Origin: Thermoplasmatota archaeon
GTDB taxonomy: Archaea > Thermoplasmatota > Penumbrarchaeia > Penumbrarchaeales > Penumbrarchaeaceae
DNA: 31,295 nucleotides
Assembly: GCA_965234725.1 (NCBI GenBank)
Contig: CBDDUX010000108.1
Span: 1-31,295, forward strand
Reading direction: 5' to 3'
In this document: positions 1-12,976 of the stretch, piece by piece
Numbering within the stretch: position 1 is the first letter of the stretch
Layout of the letters: every line of letters starts with the position of its first letter
Notes under the pieces: generated by a model
Seen by the model: only the letters and a program-made list of their open reading frames with translations
Database searches by the model: none
Told to the model about the DNA's origin: nothing
Made by a program: the position numbers and the translations under genes

Positions 1-1
1 T

Positions 2-133
2 TTAAAACTTGCTCTCTTAACCCTTTCAATCTTCCTAAAGGGGTACAAAAAAAATATTGAAAATGGAGATAAGAAACATGTGCACCGCGATGAAAAACAG
101 GAAAAGCTCAATTCCATCGAGGCCCAAGAATAA
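2..133 (+). CDS. Possible 3' end of a gene entering from the left (hydrophobic stretch followed by charged tail)
   Basis: Frame 2 is open from the window edge to TAA at 131-133: LKLALLTLSIFLKGYKKNIENGDKKHVHRDEKQEKLNSIEAQE*. No family recognised. Confidence 0.3.
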   Translation, partial: LKLALLTLSIFLKGYKKNIENGDKKHVHRDEKQEKLNSIEAQE

Positions 134-314
134 GATCTCCTGATGAGCCAGAGATATTTTCCCGTTATTATCCATAGAGCAAATTCAACTGCTTATTCCA
201 ATTCCATATCCAAGGCATTGTCAGGAAAGGGCATCAAAACGTAATATCAGTCATGCTCAAACAGACCATGAAAACATATAATTCGTTCTATTCATTCATA
301 GATAAATATTGAAA

Positions 315-336
315 GTTCAAAATCGGTCTGGCCCAC
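315..336 (+). repeat. tRNA 3'-end-like fragment, copy 1 (putative att scar)
   Basis: GTTCAAAATCGGTCTGGCCCAC resembles a T-loop (GTTCAAATC) plus the 3' acceptor strand. It shares the core TCGGYCTGGCCCA with 2157-2173 and 3569-3582. Confidence 0.6.
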
Positions 337-500
337 TTTTGCTTTTTTTTCAGGCCATTCTGTGGAAACGTCCAGATATACATCTACCTGAAACTCCTTA
401 GACATTCAATTACGCATCAATCTTCTACTGGTCCCCATATTCCCATAAGGACGTAAGAAATCATTGATCATAGTCTCCCTCAAAATTAAATAATTGAATA

Positions 501-2108
501 TTGTTGAGACGGATGATGGACATTTCCAATGCCCTGACCAATCCGATACTGACTTTTAGCATTATTCTCATAATTTCCCTAATAATCCCGGAATTTCTGA
601 AAAAATACAAGATAACATCCGTTCCATTCTTCATCATAGCCGGAATCCTTCTCGGTCCTTTCGGTATTGGGCTGCACCTCGGAGAAGGTCTGATCTTCCT
701 AGGAGAGGTAGGGCTTCTCTTTCTCATATTCATTGCGGGAATGGAGATCTACGAGATGGGGGACCTCCACATCGGAAAGATCGTTCTATTCACTATTATC
801 TCGGCGGTCATCTGTTTTTTCGGGGGATTCCTTCTCGGACTTGGAATGGGCTACTCTATTCTCACTGCCCTTCTGATTGGTACAGTGCTGATCTCATCAT
901 CAATAGGCGAGATCATCCCCATGGTCAATTCAACTCCTTCTGTGAAAAGAAGGCTTTCGCATATCATATTCCCGAGTATAGTCATTCTGGATGCTGCAAG
1001 CCTTATTCTCCTCGGAGTTATCCTTAAAACAGAACAACCGATGATCCAGGTGGTCCTCTTCATTGTTGAATTGTCACTACTGGTCATAATCTCGTTCACT
1101 TTTCTTCCCCGACTGCTGAAATTCTTCTTCAACAGAACCTCGAGAAAACCTAATGAGGGCGATCTAAAATTCATAATAACCATTCTCATGTTTGTAGTGG
1201 CGGCAGGTTATGCCATAGGTGTACACGGAATAGTCACGGCTTTCATAGCGGGTGTAATAGTGGGCAGGCATTTACCCAACCAGACAGTTATTGACAAGGT
1301 CCATGCCATGGGATACGGAATGTTGATACCTGTATTCTTCATCGTACTCGGAATGGAACTGGAGATAGGTGTTCTGTTCGAAGGAACGAGCAACCTGATC
1401 TTTCCTGTTTTCCTCATATTGACACTTATCATGACCAAGATTATCGGAGGCTTGATTTTTGCTATTATAAAGAGAATGCCTCTCAGGGACGGCTTCATTT
1501 TAGGTATGGTCTTGTGGCCTCAGCTTTCCGCTACCATAGCTGCGACCGCTGTGGGGTATGAAACCGGAATCATCAAACAGGAAGTAATGGTGGCAGTTGT
1601 GATAATGGCTTTGTTTTCAGCTCTCGGAACACCGTTCATTTTAAGAAGGTTCGTCAGAAAGGATATTGAAAGATTACTGGTTAGAAATCATATCATTATC
1701 TGCGGTCTTGGTCGAACCACATCCAAATTAGCTTATATTATGGAGGGTATGAATTTTCCACTTGTTATTATTGATAAGAACCATGGAAGATTGAAAGAGA
1801 TCGAAGAAAGGGGTGTTCCGACAATTTTCGGGAATGCCGCCTCCAGATCGGTCTTAAAGGATGCGGGGATCTCAAAGGCCAGAATGGCGATACTCTCGAT
1901 AGCGGATGAACACGACCTGTTTGTAACTGCAAGGAATATTCGCAAACTCAATCCTATATGTCATATAATCGCAAAGGTGCATACTGAAAGATCGTATGAT
2001 ATCCTGAGCAGACAGAAACTTATCGATGATTACGTATGGCCGGAAAAACGATCCGCATCCGAAATTTCCAAGAAAGTTATAAGTCTGATATCAAAAGAAC
2101 CTCTATAA
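501..2108 (+). CDS. Kef-type cation:proton antiporter (CPA2) with C-terminal RCK/TrkA-N domain
   Basis: Many hydrophobic segments with CPA motifs (IAGILLGPFG, GLLFLIFIAGME, AFIAG, IPVFFIVLG) and C-terminal IIICGLGR...IFGNAA...DAGISKA. The true start may be ATG 512 or 515. Confidence 0.9.
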   Translation: MLRRMMDISNALTNPILTFSIILIISLIIPEFLKKYKITSVPFFIIAGILLGPFGIGLHLGEGLIFLGEVGLLFLIFIAGMEIYEMGDLHIGKIVLFTIISAVICFFGGFLLGLGMGYSILTALLIGTVLISSSIGEIIPMVNSTPSVKRRLSHIIFPSIVILDAASLILLGVILKTEQPMIQVVLFIVELSLLVIISFTFLPRLLKFFFNRTSRKPNEGDLKFIITILMFVVAAGYAIGVHGIVTAFIAGVIVGRHLPNQTVIDKVHAMGYGMLIPVFFIVLGMELEIGVLFEGTSNLIFPVFLILTLIMTKIIGGLIFAIIKRMPLRDGFILGMVLWPQLSATIAATAVGYETGIIKQEVMVAVVIMALFSALGTPFILRRFVRKDIERLLVRNHIIICGLGRTTSKLAYIMEGMNFPLVIIDKNHGRLKEIEERGVPTIFGNAASRSVLKDAGISKARMAILSIADEHDLFVTARNIRKLNPICHIIAKVHTERSYDILSRQKLIDDYVWPEKRSASEISKKVISLISKEPL

Positions 2109-2127
2109 AATGATCATATGATCAGTT
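2108..2127. promoter_or_regulatory. Inverted-repeat motif AAATGATC-N4-GATCAGTT, copy A
   Basis: Contains the perfect palindrome TGATCATATGATCA (2111-2124). The same motif recurs at 3539-3558. Confidence 0.45.
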
Positions 2128-2156
2128 TCGATGAATGTTGGATCTATCAGTCAGGA

Positions 2157-2173
2157 TTCGGCCTGGCCCACCA
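2157..2173 (+). repeat. tRNA 3'-end-like fragment, copy 2 (putative att scar)
   Basis: TTCGGCCTGGCCCACCA ends in discriminator A plus CCA. 14 bp are identical to 3569-3582. Confidence 0.65.
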
Positions 2174-2198
2174 ACTATTCTTGACGAGTCCTATTTTC

Positions 2199-3494
2199 TC
2201 AGTTTAGCAACCATTTCCAGAGAGATACTATCTCGATCCCTTCTTCGGTTTTGGATCCTTCCCTGGAGAGTATCATTTTCTTGGCCTTTCCCAGTTCTTT
2301 CTCGGCTTCGAACAATGCTTTGATCTCTCTCTTCCTCGTTTTCGGATCTTCCATATCCCAACAAACCTGGATCAACTGTTTCTCATCGCCTCTTACAATA
2401 ACAAAATCTACTTCCCCCTTCCCCTTCCAGTAGAATATCTCATCTTTAGAAAATCTTCTAAAAAGCTCCATTGCTACGATATTCTCGGCGAGACTTCCAA
2501 GATCCATTCTCTTCGGACTCTTCACCGATCGAACCATACCCGTATCAATGCAGTACAACTTTTTTGGATACTGCTCTATATCCTTCGCCTTGTATGAGAT
2601 GATCGGTATGAAAGTGAATATCAATGATTCAGAAAGGTAGGAGAAATATTCATTGACCGTAGCAGATGAGATCTTGAACCCGACAGAGTTCATGGAATTC
2701 TTCATCTTCGTTACACTTGTCAGGTTGGAAATATTGTTAAGGAGCAGTGTAACCAGTGATTTCAATTTGTGGACCTCTCTGACCCCGAACCTGTTTACTA
2801 TATCTCGATTGATTATTGAATGAAATAGTTCCTTGAGAAACTCCCCTTTAAGACCTTGATCCTCGATAGATTGTACCTGTGGATAACCTCCACCCTCCAT
2901 ATATTCAAGAAGTCTGCCCTGCATTTCCTTTTCATTCCAGACCTTATTCAGTTGACCTCTAAAACCCAGGAACTCCTGAAAACCAAAAGGCTGGATCCTT
3001 AGTTCCATGAACCTTCCTGTAAGAAGTGATGACAATTCCTGAGACAATATTTCTGATGAAGAACCTGTAACGATCATCTTAATTTCAGGATACTTCTCTA
3101 TCATTGATCTGACCCATCTCTCCCATCCATTGATGGTTTGAGCTTCATCAATGAAGAAATAAATAGGCCCCTCTTGCTTCAGATAATGCAGATAGGTTTC
3201 ATGGATATCCATGAGTAATTGTGTCCCTAAATAGGGTTCCAAAGCAGGATCTTCGAGATTGATGAAGATCGTTGATCGAGGATCCGTTCCCTTTTCCATC
3301 AGTCTCTGGATCATCTGCCTGCAGAGGTATGTCTTTCCACTCCTTCTTACACCGGTCACAGCAACAATGGTCGAAGGGACCTTCAGATAGTCCTCGAAAC
3401 GATCCAGATACTCATTTCTGACGTATCCTGTTCCAAGCTCTTTATCCCAGAAGTTGAAAGGAGATATTACTTCCATCAATTCTGACCGTATCAT
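2199..3494 (-). CDS. AAA_14 / DUF4143 family ATPase with C-terminal PD-(D/E)xK-like domain
   Basis: Walker A GVRRSGKT, Walker B FFIDEAQ, VTGSSS, LTGR, GGYP, PKKLYCIDTG, EVDFVI...LIQVC. Confidence 0.92.
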   Translation of the reverse strand: MIRSELMEVISPFNFWDKELGTGYVRNEYLDRFEDYLKVPSTIVAVTGVRRSGKTYLCRQMIQRLMEKGTDPRSTIFINLEDPALEPYLGTQLLMDIHETYLHYLKQEGPIYFFIDEAQTINGWERWVRSMIEKYPEIKMIVTGSSSEILSQELSSLLTGRFMELRIQPFGFQEFLGFRGQLNKVWNEKEMQGRLLEYMEGGGYPQVQSIEDQGLKGEFLKELFHSIINRDIVNRFGVREVHKLKSLVTLLLNNISNLTSVTKMKNSMNSVGFKISSATVNEYFSYLSESLIFTFIPIISYKAKDIEQYPKKLYCIDTGMVRSVKSPKRMDLGSLAENIVAMELFRRFSKDEIFYWKGKGEVDFVIVRGDEKQLIQVCWDMEDPKTRKREIKALFEAEKELGKAKKMILSREGSKTEEGIEIVSLWKWLLN

Positions 3495-3499
3495 TCGTC

Positions 3500-3545
3500 A
3501 TACTAAATGATATGGACATATTTATAGTTTAGTATACTAAATGAT
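3500..3545 (-). promoter_or_regulatory. Promoter/operator of the AAA ATPase: TATA box plus palindrome plus direct repeat
   Basis: Minus-strand CTATAAATAT (3518-3527) about 25 nt before the ATG; perfect palindrome TTTAGTATACTAAA 3528-3541; ATACTAAATGAT at 3500-3511 and 3534-3545. Confidence 0.6.
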
Positions 3546-3558
3546 CTCACGATCATTT
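3539..3558. promoter_or_regulatory. Inverted-repeat motif AAATGATC-N4-GATCATTT, copy B
   Basis: Perfect 8-bp arms with a 4-nt spacer; matches 2108-2127. Confidence 0.45.
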
Positions 3559-3568
3559 TCTGAACAAT

Positions 3569-3582
3569 TTCGGCCTGGCCCA
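3569..3582 (+). repeat. tRNA 3'-end-like fragment, copy 3 (putative outermost att scar)
   Basis: TTCGGCCTGGCCCA, identical to 2157-2170. Confidence 0.65.
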
Positions 3583-3724
3583 TACCTTTTCTTCACCAGT
3601 GATGGTCACAACCTCACTTTCACGAACATTTTCATAAGCCAGGTATCTATGTGTGATCCATAATGCCGAATGATCTTCTATAGTTACATTTCCATGCCAT
3701 TAGCGAGTTACATGACCGGTCATG

Positions 3725-6097
3725 CTAATTCAGAATGGTTACCGTACCCTTTGTACCATTTACCACCACGTTGTTTGCATCCTTGAGGATCTCCGTTGCA
3801 TTCTTCAATCCCGCAACAGTTGGAATATTGGATTCCCTGGCAAGAATGGCTCCATGGGACAACATCCCCCCCACTTCGAGAATGAGTGCCCCGGCCAAGA
3901 GAAAAAGATGTGTCTGTCCCGGATCGATATACCTGGTGACCAGAATATCTCCTTTGTTGATCTTCACATTTCTGTCCAGAACCTTCACGACCAGGACCCT
4001 GCCAGTATGTATTCCGGAAGAAACAGGCTGTCCGATTATTTTCTGCCCACCATACTGTTCATTCTCCTCATGTTTTTCAGGGACGGAATCGAAATCCACT
4101 CCATTCCTGAGATATCTTCCGGGCGGTCCGGTTTCGTTCTCGAAGGAAGCTCTGTTGAACCAAGCTTCTTCTTTGAAACCCTTGCTGTGAGTTCCCGGGA
4201 GCTTTCCAAAAACCGATCGAACATCCAGAAAGAAAATATCATCCACTCTGTTGAGGATCCCTTCATCGACCATTTTTTTAGCAATCACTATAAAAAGTTC
4301 TCTCATTTTAGCCAGGATCATATCGAGATAGAACCTCTGTAACTCACGGAATTCGATATAGCGCACCAGATATCGAGAAATAATGCGGAAGGCCGTCTTA
4401 TCTCTGAAGGGGAGTGATCCCATTATTTTCCGGTTAGCCTGGTTTCTTTTCTCCAGAACCGAGTCCCTTCTTGATCTTTCATCGTTGGGGCCCTCTGATA
4501 GGGTAAGCTGTCTCATCATCGAGAATGGTATCATCGGGTCATCTTTCCATGATGGTTGATGGATATCCCTGCTGATCCTTCGATGACCGTATATCTCCAG
4601 TGTATTCTCGAAATATTCAATGAACAGCTCACCACCTGTAATTTCCATGATCTTCTCCTTATAGGATATGTACTCACTGAAGTCCCCTGTCAGGACATTC
4701 AGTATCTGTTTTTCTGACCGGGCCATATCTGCAAGATAACGGATCTCATCGGATGCGTCCATGGTCCTGTTGTTCCTGAAACCGGACATGAGGTCTGGTA
4801 GGTATTCCACAAGGTCGTTCTTATGAAGCAGATTTGTTGCCGCTCCCATGAGTGGTATTGAGTAAAGAATCATACCCCATTTCGATGAACTGACATGGAC
4901 CTTCACGATCTCCATGAGATGAGAATAGTGCTCCCATAGATGTGCATCATCCAAGCTTTCAGGATCATCCAGCTCATGTAGTTTGGAAAGAATATCAGGA
5001 ACTACTACGGTCCTGAAGTTCTCATCAAGTCTTGATATCCAGCAATCTCGATGGCCCAGGATGAAAGATAGCACCTTCATCATGATCGGGATGGGGGATC
5101 TTTTATTCCCCTCTCTCAATTCCTTTCTGATGTCGGGAGGAACGGTCTCCCATATCTGGTCCATGCCATCCTTTAAAGGCATGGCACCCAGCGCATATTC
5201 CATTATGTTGGTGTCGGCGTAGAGAAAATTTTTGTGTCTTATGAGAAAGTCTTCACCCACATTTACACCAAGCCCCAGATCCTTCATGGTCTCTGCAAGG
5301 TAGTATTCTGTGTAAATGGTCCTGAAGATAGAGAAAAACAGGGGAGTTACGGGTCCCGAGTAGAATTGCTCTGCCTGGACTCGGCTAAATGTTCGAAAAC
5401 CAATCCTTTCAGGAGGAGGCAGGTTCGTGATCGGTCTTACCTGGAGGATGGACAATTCTTCTTCAGAGTAGGCCCATTCGATATCCAGGGGATAGCCGAA
5501 TTTCTTCTCCAGATACCTCGAGGTTTCTATCAATTTTCCGAGGTCGATCCCCGTCTCCGGGTAATTGATATGCTCTATTGATAAATCCAGATCATTTGGA
5601 ACCTTGATCCTCTTCGGGTCCGACCTTCCGGAGACCAGGGAGTCGCACAACCCCTCAATATATTCGATTATCGTTTCATTACTCCCGTCGAGAGGGTTTC
5701 TGGTGAAAAGGACCCCGGCGACATTTGGATCAAGCTGCTTCTGAATTATTACGGCCATATCCTCTTCTCCGGCTGAGGACCAGACCTCATTGACGGCTTT
5801 GATCAGATCCTGATGGGAAACCACGTTAAGGATCGTTCTGAATAAACCTGCATTCGATCGATCCGATAGGTCTTCCCCCACTGATGAGGACCTTACCACA
5901 ACCTTCCCACCCAGCATTTCCAGTATTTCACTCAGTTTTTTTAAAAGATCATCATCCATATCGCTGTGGGCGAACTTTCTGTAACATTCGGTTGTCAGGA
6001 TCCAAAATTCCGGTACGTGCAACCCAAGAAGATGGCATCTGTACAATTCGAACCCCTTCGATCCAATATGGTCCCTGTTCCCCTCCCTTACGATCAT
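3725..6097 (-). CDS. PEP-utilising/dikinase-type phosphotransferase (rifampin phosphotransferase / PigC architecture)
   Basis: N-terminal ATP-grasp (GSKG, VVVRSS..GED...S.AG.F, DIEWA, LQVRPIT), helical central domain, C-terminal swivelling phospho-His domain (GGMLSHGAILARE). No PEP-binding TIM barrel. Confidence 0.88.
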   Translation of the reverse strand: MIVREGNRDHIGSKGFELYRCHLLGLHVPEFWILTTECYRKFAHSDMDDDLLKKLSEILEMLGGKVVVRSSSVGEDLSDRSNAGLFRTILNVVSHQDLIKAVNEVWSSAGEEDMAVIIQKQLDPNVAGVLFTRNPLDGSNETIIEYIEGLCDSLVSGRSDPKRIKVPNDLDLSIEHINYPETGIDLGKLIETSRYLEKKFGYPLDIEWAYSEEELSILQVRPITNLPPPERIGFRTFSRVQAEQFYSGPVTPLFFSIFRTIYTEYYLAETMKDLGLGVNVGEDFLIRHKNFLYADTNIMEYALGAMPLKDGMDQIWETVPPDIRKELREGNKRSPIPIMMKVLSFILGHRDCWISRLDENFRTVVVPDILSKLHELDDPESLDDAHLWEHYSHLMEIVKVHVSSSKWGMILYSIPLMGAATNLLHKNDLVEYLPDLMSGFRNNRTMDASDEIRYLADMARSEKQILNVLTGDFSEYISYKEKIMEITGGELFIEYFENTLEIYGHRRISRDIHQPSWKDDPMIPFSMMRQLTLSEGPNDERSRRDSVLEKRNQANRKIMGSLPFRDKTAFRIISRYLVRYIEFRELQRFYLDMILAKMRELFIVIAKKMVDEGILNRVDDIFFLDVRSVFGKLPGTHSKGFKEEAWFNRASFENETGPPGRYLRNGVDFDSVPEKHEENEQYGGQKIIGQPVSSGIHTGRVLVVKVLDRNVKINKGDILVTRYIDPGQTHLFLLAGALILEVGGMLSHGAILARESNIPTVAGLKNATEILKDANNVVVNGTKGTVTILN

Positions 6098-7059
6098 TAA
6101 AATCCTCTTCCAATTTTAAGAAGCTTGAGTAAGAAGGGGAGCTTTTTCAGTTTGTTAGGATAGTGCCAGAGGTATTCTTGAAGTCCGAACCCTACACTGT
6201 TGTTGATCGTCATTTTGCCTATGCCCTCGTAAACAAGGCTTCCGGATGGAGGGAACGGGATCGAAATGGTAGATTCGCAATTGACCTCGAATCTCCGGTT
6301 CTTCGAGTCTCTGAATACTATATGGGATCCTTTCGGTTCTCTTCCATCGGTTTGATACTCGACCATGATCTTTTGGTCGATCACATCTACGTTCTCCTCA
6401 CCGTCGAATACAAAACCCTTGAAAAATGGTTTTCCACTGATCGATCCATCCCATATATTGAATGCCAGATCTTTCGAGAACGCACAACAGTGAAGACTGT
6501 ATCTGTCTATCGAAGCCCAATCCCTGATACCCCAGGAATGGTCTCTGTGTCCCAAACATGGACCAATTCTCATCTCCTTTCCATTCAGGACCAAGGACCC
6601 ACTATACATTCCGAACTGTTCATAGTGCTGGGTGCCTATCCTTTCGAAGATCCATTCTTCTTCGTCATCTTTTCTGTAAGGATAGATACGGTTGACAGGT
6701 GAGAACTTGAGATCCATTCCTATCTTCTTGTCATTGAATTTCAATCTCCAATCCGTGCCTTCGACAGAATATCCCATATCACCGATCCTGAATTCATAGC
6801 CGGAAAACAATGGTTTCTTCAAAGATATCAGTGGTTTGAGAACTATCGGCCTGTCATCTTTAATTATTAAAATAAATCCAACCGACCTTTTTTTATTTGG
6901 CAGTTGACCTATGGTCGTGATGATACTGATCCTTTTTTTCGGGTCTGTCATATTGAAATAGTAACTTTCTCTCCAATTTCTATCCTCATGGATCCCTCCT
7001 CCCCTAGATTGAGAGATCAAATGATTGATATTGTCCATGTCAAGATATTTGCCCTTCAT
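6097..7059 (-). CDS. Uncharacterised protein, AttH/CrtC/tocopherol-cyclase-like beta-barrel family (inferred)
   Basis: Motifs WRESYYF, HYEQFG, GHRDHSWGIRDW. 1-bp TAATG overlap with the downstream phosphotransferase. Confidence 0.65.
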   Translation of the reverse strand: MKGKYLDMDNINHLISQSRGGGIHEDRNWRESYYFNMTDPKKRISIITTIGQLPNKKRSVGFILIIKDDRPIVLKPLISLKKPLFSGYEFRIGDMGYSVEGTDWRLKFNDKKIGMDLKFSPVNRIYPYRKDDEEEWIFERIGTQHYEQFGMYSGSLVLNGKEMRIGPCLGHRDHSWGIRDWASIDRYSLHCCAFSKDLAFNIWDGSISGKPFFKGFVFDGEENVDVIDQKIMVEYQTDGREPKGSHIVFRDSKNRRFEVNCESTISIPFPPSGSLVYEGIGKMTINNSVGFGLQEYLWHYPNKLKKLPFLLKLLKIGRGF

Positions 7060-7111
7060 GGGATTGATTCATTTGGAGATGCATTAAATATTGTGACTTC
7101 CATGGAAGCCT

Positions 7112-7789
7112 ATGTTTGGATTGAAGAGATTCACTCTCAGGACGAGATATCACTCCACCCTGATACCATATCTCGATAGAATGTTCGTTTATGTTAATTC
7201 ATTGACAGTTCAGGAACAGTTCATGATCTCCTCAAGAGAATTTCTTGTTCTGTGTAATATTCAATGGAAAAAGGTCCCGGCTAATGTCGAATTGCTGCTT
7301 GAACTACTGGTTGATGAGATAGAATGGTATGAAGAGATTATACACATAGATACCCAGAAAAGAAGGACACTATGTTTTATCAAAGGTCATCATGATCCGG
7401 GGTATACGGATCTCTTCCATTTCATAATGAAGGAATACCTCTGCTTCCTGGAGTTCCCCATCCATGCGACAGAGGAATATGGCACTTTCAACATGGTTGG
7501 ACCTCCTGAAGAGATAACCAGATTGTTGGATTATATGAAAGATTGGGGATCAAGTATGGAGATCATCGGGATCAGGGCATACAATCCCAAGGACAGGGGG
7601 ATCCTTTCAATATTGACAGAGAAGCAGCTTTCTGTATTGAAGCAAGCTCATTTTAGAGGTTTCTTTGATACTCCAAGAAAAAGAGATTCCCGTAAGATAT
7701 CTGAAGAGATCGGTATAAGACATACAACTTTCCTGACACACCTCAGAAAGGGGCAGAAAAGGATCTTTTCCTATTTATTCCAGGAATGA
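7112..7789 (+). CDS. Transcriptional regulator with C-terminal HTH_10 (bacterio-opsin activator-type) domain
   Basis: LTEKQLSVLKQAHFRGFFDTPRK...ISEEIGIRHTTFLTHLRKGQKRI fits the HTH_10 pattern. Start more likely ATG 7181 or 7223. Confidence 0.85.
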   Translation: MFGLKRFTLRTRYHSTLIPYLDRMFVYVNSLTVQEQFMISSREFLVLCNIQWKKVPANVELLLELLVDEIEWYEEIIHIDTQKRRTLCFIKGHHDPGYTDLFHFIMKEYLCFLEFPIHATEEYGTFNMVGPPEEITRLLDYMKDWGSSMEIIGIRAYNPKDRGILSILTEKQLSVLKQAHFRGFFDTPRKRDSRKISEEIGIRHTTFLTHLRKGQKRIFSYLFQE

Positions 7790-7805
7790 TGATATTCGGA
7801 GTCTT

Positions 7806-8447
7806 TCATTTCTTATTAAAGGAGCCAATGAAGAAGGGGTAGCCAAGAACAGGTCCTCCTTTGAAGCTCTCGATCTCGATAAGGTCCTTCATAGATCGGA
7901 TTATCTGCTCCGTGTTCCTGTTCAGATTGCAGCCGGAAGGGGCATGCCAGATGGGTGATATCTTGTCGAAGATGAAAGCCTGGGGCCCGGCTTTCGGAAG
8001 CTGATGTTCAATGAAAACAAATCGTCCCCCTTTCTTCAGAACACGAACACCTTCCTCGATCACGGATAGGGGGTCTTCTACTGTGCAAAGTATAAGGGTT
8101 GAAACAACCGAGTCGAACTTCTCATCCTCGAAAGGTAGCTTTTCCCCGTATCCTACCGTTGTCCTCAGACATCTTCCATTATCACCGTATCCCCACCCTT
8201 CAGCTTTTCTTTTCAGATAAGTGATATTCTCATGGTTGGGATCAAGGACCGTGACACAGTTGACACTTTCCGGATAATATTTGAGGTTCGTTCCGGTGCC
8301 AGAACCGATGTCCAGGACCTCTCCCGTAAGAGGAGAAAGCATTTCCCTTCTCCATTTTGCGAACCATGCAAGCTCCATGGGAGCCAGGAAGAGATCGTAA
8401 CTCTTTGGTCCTGCATTCTTGGACCGCTTTTCAATACCGTCGGACAT
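7806..8447 (-). CDS. Class I SAM-dependent methyltransferase (METTL7-like)
   Basis: VLDIGSGTGTN, GEKLPFEDEKFDSVVSTLILCTV, RVLKKGGRFVFIEH, GCNLNR. Confidence 0.88.
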   Translation of the reverse strand: MSDGIEKRSKNAGPKSYDLFLAPMELAWFAKWRREMLSPLTGEVLDIGSGTGTNLKYYPESVNCVTVLDPNHENITYLKRKAEGWGYGDNGRCLRTTVGYGEKLPFEDEKFDSVVSTLILCTVEDPLSVIEEGVRVLKKGGRFVFIEHQLPKAGPQAFIFDKISPIWHAPSGCNLNRNTEQIIRSMKDLIEIESFKGGPVLGYPFFIGSFNKK

Positions 8448-8522
8448 AATAGGACTTAGAATGGTCCTGATGGTTAATAATATGACACCTGACAGGAGAG
8501 GTCCTTACAGGATAGACAGATA

Positions 8523-9098
8523 TCATTCAGAGAATTTGGCCCCGCATCCGGGACAGTACTTGAATGTCTTCTCGGAAGGTGTTTTGCAGATCGGACAGAA
8601 GGACTTTACTGATTTCTTTTCCTCCGCTTCCAGCTTCTTTTTCACCCTGGAGGCAAGCATGCTGTCCTCGACGGTTCCCGGGAACTTGAAGATGAGAAGT
8701 CCCATGATCGAAAGGAAATAGAAGACCATTCCCACGGATATGATGACCCATCTGATCCCCGGGTCGGTGAGCTCATCTGTAAGGATGTCCATGAGATATG
8801 TATAAAGCGTGATGATCGCCATGTTCAGCCACAGGAATATTAAAAGGATCGTTACAGCGGGCCCGGTCTTCCTGGCCTTGGAGAAAAGGGAACCAAGCGT
8901 AACGACGAACCCGAAGGCGATGGCAGCACCGACCATCCCGAATATCCACATCTTGAGAGCATTGCTATAGTCCGCTGTCTCTGTAATGTCCTCAAGGTTC
9001 ATGTTCTTGAGTGTTAGGAACAGCGTTCCGAATAGAATGAACAGTGCAGCGTGATACATCAATACCCCAGGTTTGTTCAACAAGGCCATGTGACCCAC
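8523..9098 (-). CDS. Membrane protein (about 4 TM) with C-terminal zinc ribbon
   Basis: Four hydrophobic segments; CPICK...CPGCG at the C-terminus. Start GTG 9098 or ATG 9089. Confidence 0.75.
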   Translation of the reverse strand: MGHMALLNKPGVLMYHAALFILFGTLFLTLKNMNLEDITETADYSNALKMWIFGMVGAAIAFGFVVTLGSLFSKARKTGPAVTILLIFLWLNMAIITLYTYLMDILTDELTDPGIRWVIISVGMVFYFLSIMGLLIFKFPGTVEDSMLASRVKKKLEAEEKKSVKSFCPICKTPSEKTFKYCPGCGAKFSE

Positions 9099-9160
9099 CC
9101 TTGTCTTGGATAAGACTCTTCTTTTTAAACCTTATTGGCAATTGGTCTAATTGAACACTC

Positions 9161-9763
9161 TCATTTTTCATTTTCCAGTTCTAGAATGGCCGAGACCAGG
9201 GTAGGGATCCTTCCCTTGATCCTTACAATGAGCTCATTTCCATGCTCCACAAGAGGTGGTATGATGAAAGGTAGACTCTCCCTGTTGAAGATATGGAGGG
9301 GGACCTCGATCCTCTCAGTTCCCAGGAACTCAACGACCACCCCCCAATCAGGGATCCTGCCCGAAGGATCCGTTCTAACCGATCTGATCGTGGAGAATTT
9401 CAGACCGTTTCCGTTGGCAAGGTTCCTCAATTCCGAAGCCGTGACGATATCCATGCACCGTATATGAAGGAGGAGAGGCTGAACAAGAAGATGAACCTGT
9501 CCGGACCCATCCCATTTTCCAAGGGCATCCAGGACCTCTTGGGATGAGACCGTCCGATGCCATTTTCCAAGGACCGTGGAACCCAATTTATCTCCTGGTT
9601 CCGGAACCGATATTACCATTATCCTGCCGGAACATGAAGAGGTCGTCACCGCACATGGGAGCTTGTTTATCGCCTCCAGCAACGGGACGACCTCCGGATC
9701 GACGAGTCCCTTCATTAAGGCATCATCGAGTTTCCTTAGCGTATCTTGCTTCAGATCATCCAA
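9161..9763 (-). CDS. taw3: tRNA(Phe) wyosine-derivative N4-methyltransferase Taw3/TYW3
   Basis: Signature VD...PLL..IN...TTSSCSGRI, KWH, PLLLHI; length typical of archaeal Taw3. Confidence 0.9.
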   Translation of the reverse strand: MDDLKQDTLRKLDDALMKGLVDPEVVPLLEAINKLPCAVTTSSCSGRIMVISVPEPGDKLGSTVLGKWHRTVSSQEVLDALGKWDGSGQVHLLVQPLLLHIRCMDIVTASELRNLANGNGLKFSTIRSVRTDPSGRIPDWGVVVEFLGTERIEVPLHIFNRESLPFIIPPLVEHGNELIVRIKGRIPTLVSAILELENEK

Positions 9764-12747: not shown

Positions 12748-12796
12748 ACAATACCTCCATTGGTAGTTATTCGATATCCACTATTTTTTAATTACA

Positions 12797-12916
12797 GAGC
12801 CTGTCCGAGAAATGACTTTCATTCACACGGAGGGGTAACTATTCCTTGAAAAACGGGGAGTTTGAAGGTTGAATATACCCTCCGATGAGATTGTTTATTA
12901 TTTCTCGGACACACTC
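12797..12916. mobile_element. 120-bp MITE with 17-bp terminal inverted repeats and 4-bp TACA target-site duplication
   Basis: Left TIR GAGCCTGTCCGAGAAAT (12797-12813); right TIR reverse complement GAGTGTGTCCGAGAAAT (12900-12916), 15/17 match; TACA at 12793-12796 and 12917-12920; no transposase. Confidence 0.75.
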
Positions 12917-12976
12917 TACAGTTAATTTAATACCGGTTCATTTTGAAATCGAATTCTTGAAATACCCTAACATGTT

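Follow-up and report, generated by a model that had tools for sequence, protein, structure and literature searches.

A tRNA-free stack of tRNA-Ile(CAT) gene tails separating single-gene units in a Thermoplasmatota genome

The window analyzed here (31,295 nucleotides; GenBank assembly GCA_965234725.1, contig CBDDUX010000108.1) is the entire contig C108 of a Thermoplasmatota archaeon genome of 3.54 Mb in 114 contigs, hereafter G000. Other contigs of G000 carry C-numbers, and its relatives are numbered from G001 onward, G011 and G014 each belonging to a genus other than that of G000. Near the left end of the window, a 13-base motif has three exact matches on the same strand (positions 323-335, 2158-2170, and 3570-3582). 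All three copies are intergenic, and a single long open reading frame (ORF) separates each successive pair (Table 1). A second-order Markov model predicts 0.002 exact matches for the window and 0.14 for the whole genome, which holds 5. Copies 2 and 3 are identical to each other, and copy 1 deviates by one base. An original prediction, made from the letters alone, had read the copies as tRNA 3' ends bounding integrase-less units of one gene each; its description of the layout proved accurate, including the T-loop-like stretch before copy 1 and the continuation of copy 2 to the CCA end.

Table 1. Features at the left end of the window
Feature	Position	Strand	Remarks
IS91-family element end	1..46	.	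~46 bp common to 15 G000 contig ends
Decayed Fic/DOC gene, 3' remnant	~125..312	+	stop codon 310-312; ends 11 bp before copy 1
Copy 1	315..335	+	T-loop-like 8-mer at 315-322, then tRNA positions 62-73 at 324-335
Unit 1 cargo: CPA2-family cation/proton antiporter, C-terminal TrkA_N, ~531 aa	513..2108	+	PF00999, PF02254
Copy 2 and recurrent downstream arm	2157..2188	+	tRNA positions 60-73 at 2157-2170; arm 2171-2188
Unit 2 cargo: AAA_14+DUF4143 ATPase, 431 aa	2199..3494	-	PADLOC PDC-S01, E 3e-117
Two short palindromes upstream of the ATPase	3528..3558	.	probably the ATPase's own promoter/operator region
Copy 3, outermost site, followed by resident chromosome	3569..3582	+	13/14 identical to CAT tRNA
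PPDK/PEP-utiliser-like gene, right flank outside the array	3725..6097	-	same place next to kbl, no repeat between, in G014

The antiporter of the first unit scores under the cut-off of TIGR00932. The ATPase of the second unit is a candidate defence gene and is oriented opposite to the repeats; the palindromes upstream of it are probably its own promoter/operator region, and a palindrome akin to them precedes copies in G003, G004, G007, and G009. Related short palindromes at 2111-2124 (35-47 bp before copy 2) and 3539-3558 (12-31 bp before copy 3) are possible operator or accessory-factor sites. The zone is AT-richer, as had been judged by eye, with a GC content of 41.4% over positions 1-3582, 48.4% from 7790 to the end, and 45.4% in the genome; the shift is modest, the antiporter and ATPase lying at the 16th and 11th GC percentiles among 1263 long ORFs. 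The units also lack an integrase, as had been supposed, since no tyrosine or serine recombinase match is located on C108 and the 7 PF00589, 2 PF00239, and 1 PF07508 matches of the genome all lie on other contigs. Rfam gave no match in window positions 1-8000, and DNA folding of the three junctions revealed no stable hairpin common to them.

tRNAs were called with ARAGORN, and the shared tail block spans tRNA positions 60-73. The 3' end of a CAT-anticodon tRNA in the middle of contig C58 matches copies 1, 2, and 3 at 11, 13, and 13 of these 14 bases, and at positions 54-59 copy 1 agrees with tRNA-Ile(GAT) at 6 of 6. We infer that it is tRNA-Ile2, since its body is similar to that of tRNA-Ile(GAT) and the initiator and intron-bearing elongator tRNA-Met roles seem to be filled by two other tRNAs. 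The repeats are copies of the tail (last 12-14 bases) of this tRNA-Ile(CAT) gene, located elsewhere in the genome. A genomic tRNA with a matching 3' end had thus been rightly anticipated, but not its identity or position. Valine had been guessed, and both ARAGORN tRNA-Val genes mismatch 3 of the 12 core bases. An intact tRNA had been expected directly left of the window, and the cognate tRNA is found at none of the contig ends formed by an insertion sequence (IS), nor is there a tRNA on the syntenic left neighbor, C47.

The array was placed by synteny. TYW3 and two neighbors (window 7806-9763) are conserved across the family. A methyltransferase gene abuts kbl in G001, G002, G003, and G012, and in G014 an HTH/DUF7064-5/PPDK block lies between the two; no repeat copy is present at this junction in any of these 5 genomes. 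In G000, 1.5 kb separates kbl from the right-hand terminus of C47. This terminus is of the partner IS end type and has no tRNA, and the array is therefore an orphan. As judged from these alignments, the window holds an orphan stack of tRNA tails between kbl and the PPDK-like gene, with neither a tRNA nor a recombinase gene. The closest relative, G004 (87% nucleotide identity), aligns with C47 for 962 bp beyond kbl and stops at the first base of a copy. Beyond this point G004 has a different, 441-aa ATPase, then a worn copy and, past a gene-less unit of 130 bp, a final copy, after which 7 of the next 9 bases agree with those following window copy 3. The stack thus has the same two ends in G000 and G004, with no cargo in common between them; the comparison of relatives that had been proposed as a check therefore yielded a cargo change with its breakpoint exactly at the repeat. 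The orphan site thus offers a clean natural test, having fixed flanks, different cargo in two genomes, and no copy in five others. The genes to its right (window 3725-7789: PPDK-like with PPDK_N and PEP-utiliser domains, DUF7064/7065, and HTH_10) form a patchy block that is found at this position in G014 and is absent here in four same-genus genomes. In addition, a 36-bp stretch right of copy 3 (3682-3716) is a 94% match to a contig start in G003 (L034 19-54).

The 12-base form of the motif occurs 1-11 times per genome, tRNA genes counted, in all 25 genomes searched (reversed control, 0-6). At several further non-tRNA sites of G000 it is always intergenic and mostly co-oriented, and is therefore clustered rather than randomly scattered. 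Scatter across the genome, together with the absence of any tRNA with this 3' end, had been named in advance as evidence against the original reading; a tRNA with this end exists, and the motif is clustered and has several other non-tRNA sites. The phenomenon also extends to other tRNAs. A copy of a tRNA's own tail (at most 1 mismatch) was found within 3 kb downstream for 17 of 44 tRNAs in G000, 24 of 32 in G004, and 6 of 15 in G008. These counts leave out two G000 calls judged spurious and a further one that could not be parsed; the Phe case of G000 looks like chance, and the G008 count covers 13 regions out of 43 matches, one of them selected for its array. Upstream of tRNAs, no own-tail copy was found in these three genomes. 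Exact intergenic, pyrimidine-flanked tail copies number 55 genome-wide, versus 0 for reversed cores.

In relatives, the arrays behind tRNA-Ile mix gene-less units (130-230 bp) with gene units, whose cargo includes AbiE, MNT-HepT, PIN, GNAT, HTH_10, and ATPases. Family-wide, the gene-less hairpin units measure 90-290 bp and the gene units carry one or two genes. A 33-bp stretch at copy 2 is a 93-94% match to junctions in the tRNA-Ile arrays of G001, G004, G009, and G012, and it also matches short contigs of sequencing run X2 with unrelated flanks. The right ends of units are common to several tRNA types (up to 90% over 30 bp) and the left arms fit the local tRNA: among 96 short units, 29 have a 7-of-8 antisense match to their own tail, versus 21 of 2095 comparisons with other tails. 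No unit exceeds 79% identity across tRNA types, and one gene-less unit recurs near-identically (96.6%) twice in G004. No paper on Thermoplasmata arrays of this kind was found in a literature search limited mostly to open papers. Two further observations concern tails of other tRNAs. An orphan stack on C102 (1914-4724) mixes Ile-type and Pro-type tails with similar arms, which suggests that the Ile, Pro, and Val tails are one specificity group. The tail of the intron-bearing tRNA-Met (miscalled as Ser by ARAGORN) has more than 10 copies, on C53, C72, C75, C85, C90, C92, and C106, and two tRNA-Met tail copies are on a contig with a Cas4-Cas1 CRISPR-Cas locus.

The extent of the copied block was resolved with 107 copies located at most 1.2 kb from their own tRNA, a set that includes 11 loci chosen for their arrays or recombinases and in which positions 60-61 were outside the search motif. 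Identity is 93-100% at positions 60-73, 37-64% at 56-59 (50% or less at 58-59), and ~20% at 50-55; at positions 74-76 it is 72, 68, and 51%. A short block starting in the T stem, a partial T-loop mimic on the side of the unit, and a unit-borne tail with a hairpin fit conservative site-specific recombination. We propose, with a probability of roughly 0.6, that each unit is a cassette with no integrase of its own, which a trans-supplied recombinase moves by crossover at the T-stem/acceptor junction. The repeats would be recombination junctions modelled on the tRNA-Ile(CAT) 3' end. Each unit would carry a tRNA tail (positions about 60/62-73) and an arm that often base-pairs with the tail, and would end in a partial T-loop mimic. 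A site-specific recombinase acting in trans, most likely of the tyrosine type, would cross over at the T-stem/acceptor junction, excising units as circles and inserting them serially, either behind the tRNA they match or at secondary sites that resemble it. The window may then hold a secondary stack founded between kbl and the PPDK-like gene before the G000/G004 split and refilled with differing cargo. A crossover subsite at the T/acceptor junction has been named for tyrosine integrases (Islander; PMC4383910), and the integrase of phage mv4 accepts any overlap sequence if attP and attB agree (10.1101/2023.11.06.565760). An mv4-like tolerance of the overlap would let one enzyme serve many tRNAs.

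The same block is also as long as the target-site duplications (TSDs) made by casposases (PMC6977970), and the repeats could accordingly be 14-bp TSDs left by a Cas1-solo casposase for which the T-loop serves as leader, which would turn the arrays into CRISPR-like insertion records. Casposons resemble the arrays in their 14-15 bp direct repeats, tandem insertion, and T-loop recognition (PMC5137440, PMC4779613, PMC6977970). Moreover, one upstream arm precedes the tails of several tRNA types, and G000 itself has an intact 407-aa Cas1-solo, 1.1 kb downstream of tRNA-Leu(CAG), as well as a fragment that adjoins clustered tRNA-Ala ends. We nevertheless consider this origin highly improbable and reject it on geometry, as the 14-bp length fits and the position and missing terminal repeats do not. 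According to the same three papers, known casposase TSDs overlap the tRNA by just its last 4-5 bp, and terminal inverted repeats are required, whereas here the duplicated block is wholly inside the tRNA. The window units have no terminal inverted repeats (1-7 of 20 terminal matches), no TSD limited to the last 4-5 tRNA bp, and no internal casposase or polB, the Cas1-solo lying on C59, outside them. The copies flanking one unit are often non-identical, the left arms fit the cognate tRNA, the 79% ceiling across tRNA types is never exceeded, and near-full-length close homologues of the Cas1-solo occur in only 3 of 41 genomes. The casposase-like gene itself (C59 6-1226; L053) has no polB on the assembled contig side, and C-terminal fragments of Cas1-solo are found in G000 (C38 76686-77012) and in several relatives, one of them beside a tRNA-Ala tail cluster.

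Evidence for movement of repeat-bounded units comes from their cargo. An AbiE unit is 96.6% identical over 1995 bp between G004 and G007, which belong to different genera, and the neighboring hydrogenase gene is 73.7% identical. The alignment sets in at base five of a copy, and on the right-hand side it runs as far as the following copy; we regard this pattern as demonstrating a recent cross-genus transfer of the unit. A PIN unit (named from sequence; no Pfam match) is shared between a G000 orphan site and a G009 tRNA array, with 83% identity over 651 bp. For the window's own cargo, the ATPase has an 80% identical orthologue in G011, at an unrelated site with no tRNA, where it is the sole gene flanked by two copies of the same orientation. 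The antiporter is present in 14 of 41 genomes (E<=1e-60), and its orthologues (85-89%) lie in the island behind tRNA-Ile(CAT) of G003 and G004; in G003, a 128-bp piece of the ATPase is located upstream of the antiporter, in reversed order relative to the window.

The arrays might need no dedicated recombinase, the repeats arising from replication slippage or hairpin-driven template switching and the genes being exchanged by recombination at short repeats. The tRNA-linked repeats (TLRs) of E. coli terminate in 18-19 bp of the tRNA upstream of them, and no mechanism is known for them (PMC8144298). Near-identical tandem units exist in our data as well (4 x 143 bp behind tRNA-Arg), and no universal enzyme was found. 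A shared length of 14 bp is short for homologous recombination, which counts against this explanation. Nor does it readily explain a 2-kb unit moving between genera with its ends at repeats, tRNA-free orphan sites, or a T-loop mimic common to unrelated units, and we hold it to be improbable.

Several results also weigh against trans-mobilized cassettes. Toward copy 3, identity with the G011 ATPase unit gives out 25 bp before the repeat, and toward copy 2 ~120 bp before it; the two units also have different arms, and a 72% ATPase orthologue in G006 has no copies around it. There is no copy 3' of the antiporter in G003 and G004, and none within 1.5 kb of it in G001, G007, and G022. For the AbiE units, 4 of the 16 first bases of the left site differ. 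Position 61 is T in all three window copies versus C in the tRNA, the left boundary site of G000 at the G004 breakpoint is degenerate, and the window's own units look worn rather than intact copies of a fixed unit. The join between C47 and C108 is drawn from synteny and IS end types, not from reads. No recombinase family was found in all genomes with arrays. Neither circle joints, which the original prediction had suggested looking for, nor skipped forms were found in two sequencing runs, both as contigs only: X1, a marine sediment metagenome that contains nearly all words of the query sequence and may be its source, and X2, which holds only small parts. Finally, linkage of core variants to the upstream or downstream arm gave 14 and 21 informative pairs from 97 sites, with many chance matches and no clear tie to either arm.

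The worn look of the units leads to the main rival, the decay of ordinary islands. Here the repeats would be old attR sites of integrase islands of the type of cis-mobilizable elements (CIMEs), with units shrunk by deletion and moving only with a neighbor, and the stack displaced from a tRNA-Ile island by IS activity. The process is known (PMC5704250; tycheposon preprint, bioRxiv 10.1101/2020.12.28.424599). Consistent with it, the arms of the window units mismatch those of relatives, a Fic remnant and an IS91 end lie at the left, the tRNA-Ile array of G000 is short and broken by IS1-like ORFs, and ordinary integrase islands exist at tRNA-Thr in G000 and tRNA-Met in G009. Yet G004 has both a long tRNA-Ile island and the orphan site with its own cargo, and the gene-less units are narrow in size, built of conserved hairpins, and recur near-identically. 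In addition, no unit matched the ends of the single integrase island examined, at tRNA-Met of G009, and none of 4 tyrosine-recombinase matches in G004 is near its 33 listed tRNAs. On balance we judge decay unlikely.

Returning to a trans-acting recombinase, we searched for the enzyme. Tyrosine recombinases of several unrelated kinds are present in 22 of 25 genomes. Small tyrosine recombinases of 230-285 aa (alignment A1) are a weak lead and were set aside, as they occur in 7 of 24 family genomes and beside a tRNA array in 2 (G008, G012); at 13 metagenome loci none has an array, and several are phage-like. This family (in G000, C64 5114-5824; L159, L162) consists of the catalytic domain alone and is 46-66% identical across genera. 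Six of the 7 genome copies are near a contig end, two are beside tRNA arrays, and relatives lie on phage-like contigs. Xer/IntI-like proteins of 270 aa, found in several relatives, were also discarded, having variable contexts and an adjacent array in G009 only; the single one scanned falls below the TIGR02249 cut-off. A 281-aa serine recombinase on C62 was rejected as the required enzyme, PF07508 being present in 16 of 41 genomes and not found in the copy-bearing G007, G010, G012, and G024. It is a single-copy gene (C62 27164-28422; L126; L118-L131) that encodes catalytic and recombinase domains only and is accompanied by an AbrB-like gene. The order truD-tRNA-Cys (the second tRNA-Cys)-abrB-recombinase recurs in several family genomes, and the protein looks like a domesticated recombinase. 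Separately, two paralogous small integrase islands lie directly behind tRNA-Thr(CGT) and tRNA-Thr(GGT) of G000 (C102 6775-8345 and C44 19666-21807). They hold an RHH-like gene, an integrase, and a conserved ORF, and are also found in G005 and G015.

The closest parallel to the proposed units is the tandem accretion of CIMEs, in which serial co-oriented target 3' ends separate integrase-less units (PMC5704250). The units of the window likewise keep att-like ends and have neither integrase nor transfer genes. Compared with the CIMEs treated in that source, the units here are 0.1-3 kb, many are gene-less, they lie behind most tRNA types in one genome, and non-tRNA stacks exist as well; no integrase-bearing parent element with matching ends was found in 11 tRNA-Ile array loci. 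Islander islands (PMC4383910) and tycheposons (bioRxiv 10.1101/2020.12.28.424599) also displace 3' tRNA fragments, and the T/acceptor crossover fits the 60-73 block. As these sources describe them, each such island encodes an integrase and starts at an intact tRNA, and the attachment sites of tycheposons are ~40 nt with 7 tRNAs used. The window contains the tRNA fragment and has no intact upstream cognate tRNA and no integrase in either unit.

Integrons and clusters of attC sites lacking integron integrases (CALINs), including archaeal ones (bioRxiv 10.1101/2022.02.06.479319), share with the arrays one-gene units, toxin-antitoxin, defence, and acetyltransferase cargo, and clusters away from the enzyme. 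Unlike integrons as presented there, the arrays have no attC core pair and no intI, tRNA tails serve as their sites, genes point in both directions, and the ATPase seems to come with a promoter region of its own. None of 6 junction-strand scans matched an attC core-pair consensus. TLRs resemble the arrays as non-coding units ending in the upstream tRNA 3' end, 1-5 per locus, and differ in their ends of 18-19 bp; the available text of PMC8144298 describes no gene cargo, orphan stacks, or transfer for them. The window copies share 12-14 bases and have no upstream tRNA, and the short units at real tRNAs are more TLR-like. Collectively, the system operates in the manner of CIME or tycheposon accretion and has the layout of an integron or CALIN, and it does not fit the definitions of Islander islands, integrons, or casposons. 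This locus adds a tRNA-free stack with a matched breakpoint, gene cargo that tRNA arrays also hold, and cross-genus transfer of a repeat-bounded unit.

A broader scheme is possible, although we lean against it: a lineage-wide, integron-like cassette system of Thermoplasmata in which one trans-acting recombinase would recognize any tRNA gene by its universal T-loop and CCA-side features, with the acceptor-side bases serving as a cassette-borne address. Gene-less hairpin units would be its minimal cassettes, and secondary stacks would carry the platform to sites other than tRNA genes and let genera exchange defence and toxin-antitoxin genes. If one enzyme indeed used the tRNA tail as an address, the system would be an archaeal counterpart of integrons built on different chemistry, and a route for accessory and defence genes that island finders overlook. 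Such units escape Islander, whose criteria include an integrase, an intact tRNA, and a length of at least 2 kb. If a short overlap that can be exchanged allowed one recombinase to serve many tRNA genes, that enzyme would also represent a re-addressable integration tool.

Two features at the left end of the window, an IS end and a Fic remnant, had not been noted in the original prediction. The IS end is an 81% match over 53 bp to a G007 locus with a Zn_Tnp_IS91 + Y2_Tnp transposase. A second IS end type, seen at 12-13 contig ends, is its partner, as one flank of each type (A and B) maps 13 bp apart in G004. The contig breaks at this point because the IS91-family element is multi-copy; its body is seemingly unassembled in G000, and it explains ~28 contig ends. 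The adjacent Fic remnant contains internal stops and is a 78% nucleotide match to the 3' end of the 317-aa Fic gene of G002. The 5' part of the gene was not found in G000, and the remnant probably represents what is left of a fourth unit that the IS interrupted. Farther right, a 120-bp stretch (window 12796-12917) has ~72% matches elsewhere in G000 (C22, C64, and C109) and is probably an IS-derived miniature repeat.

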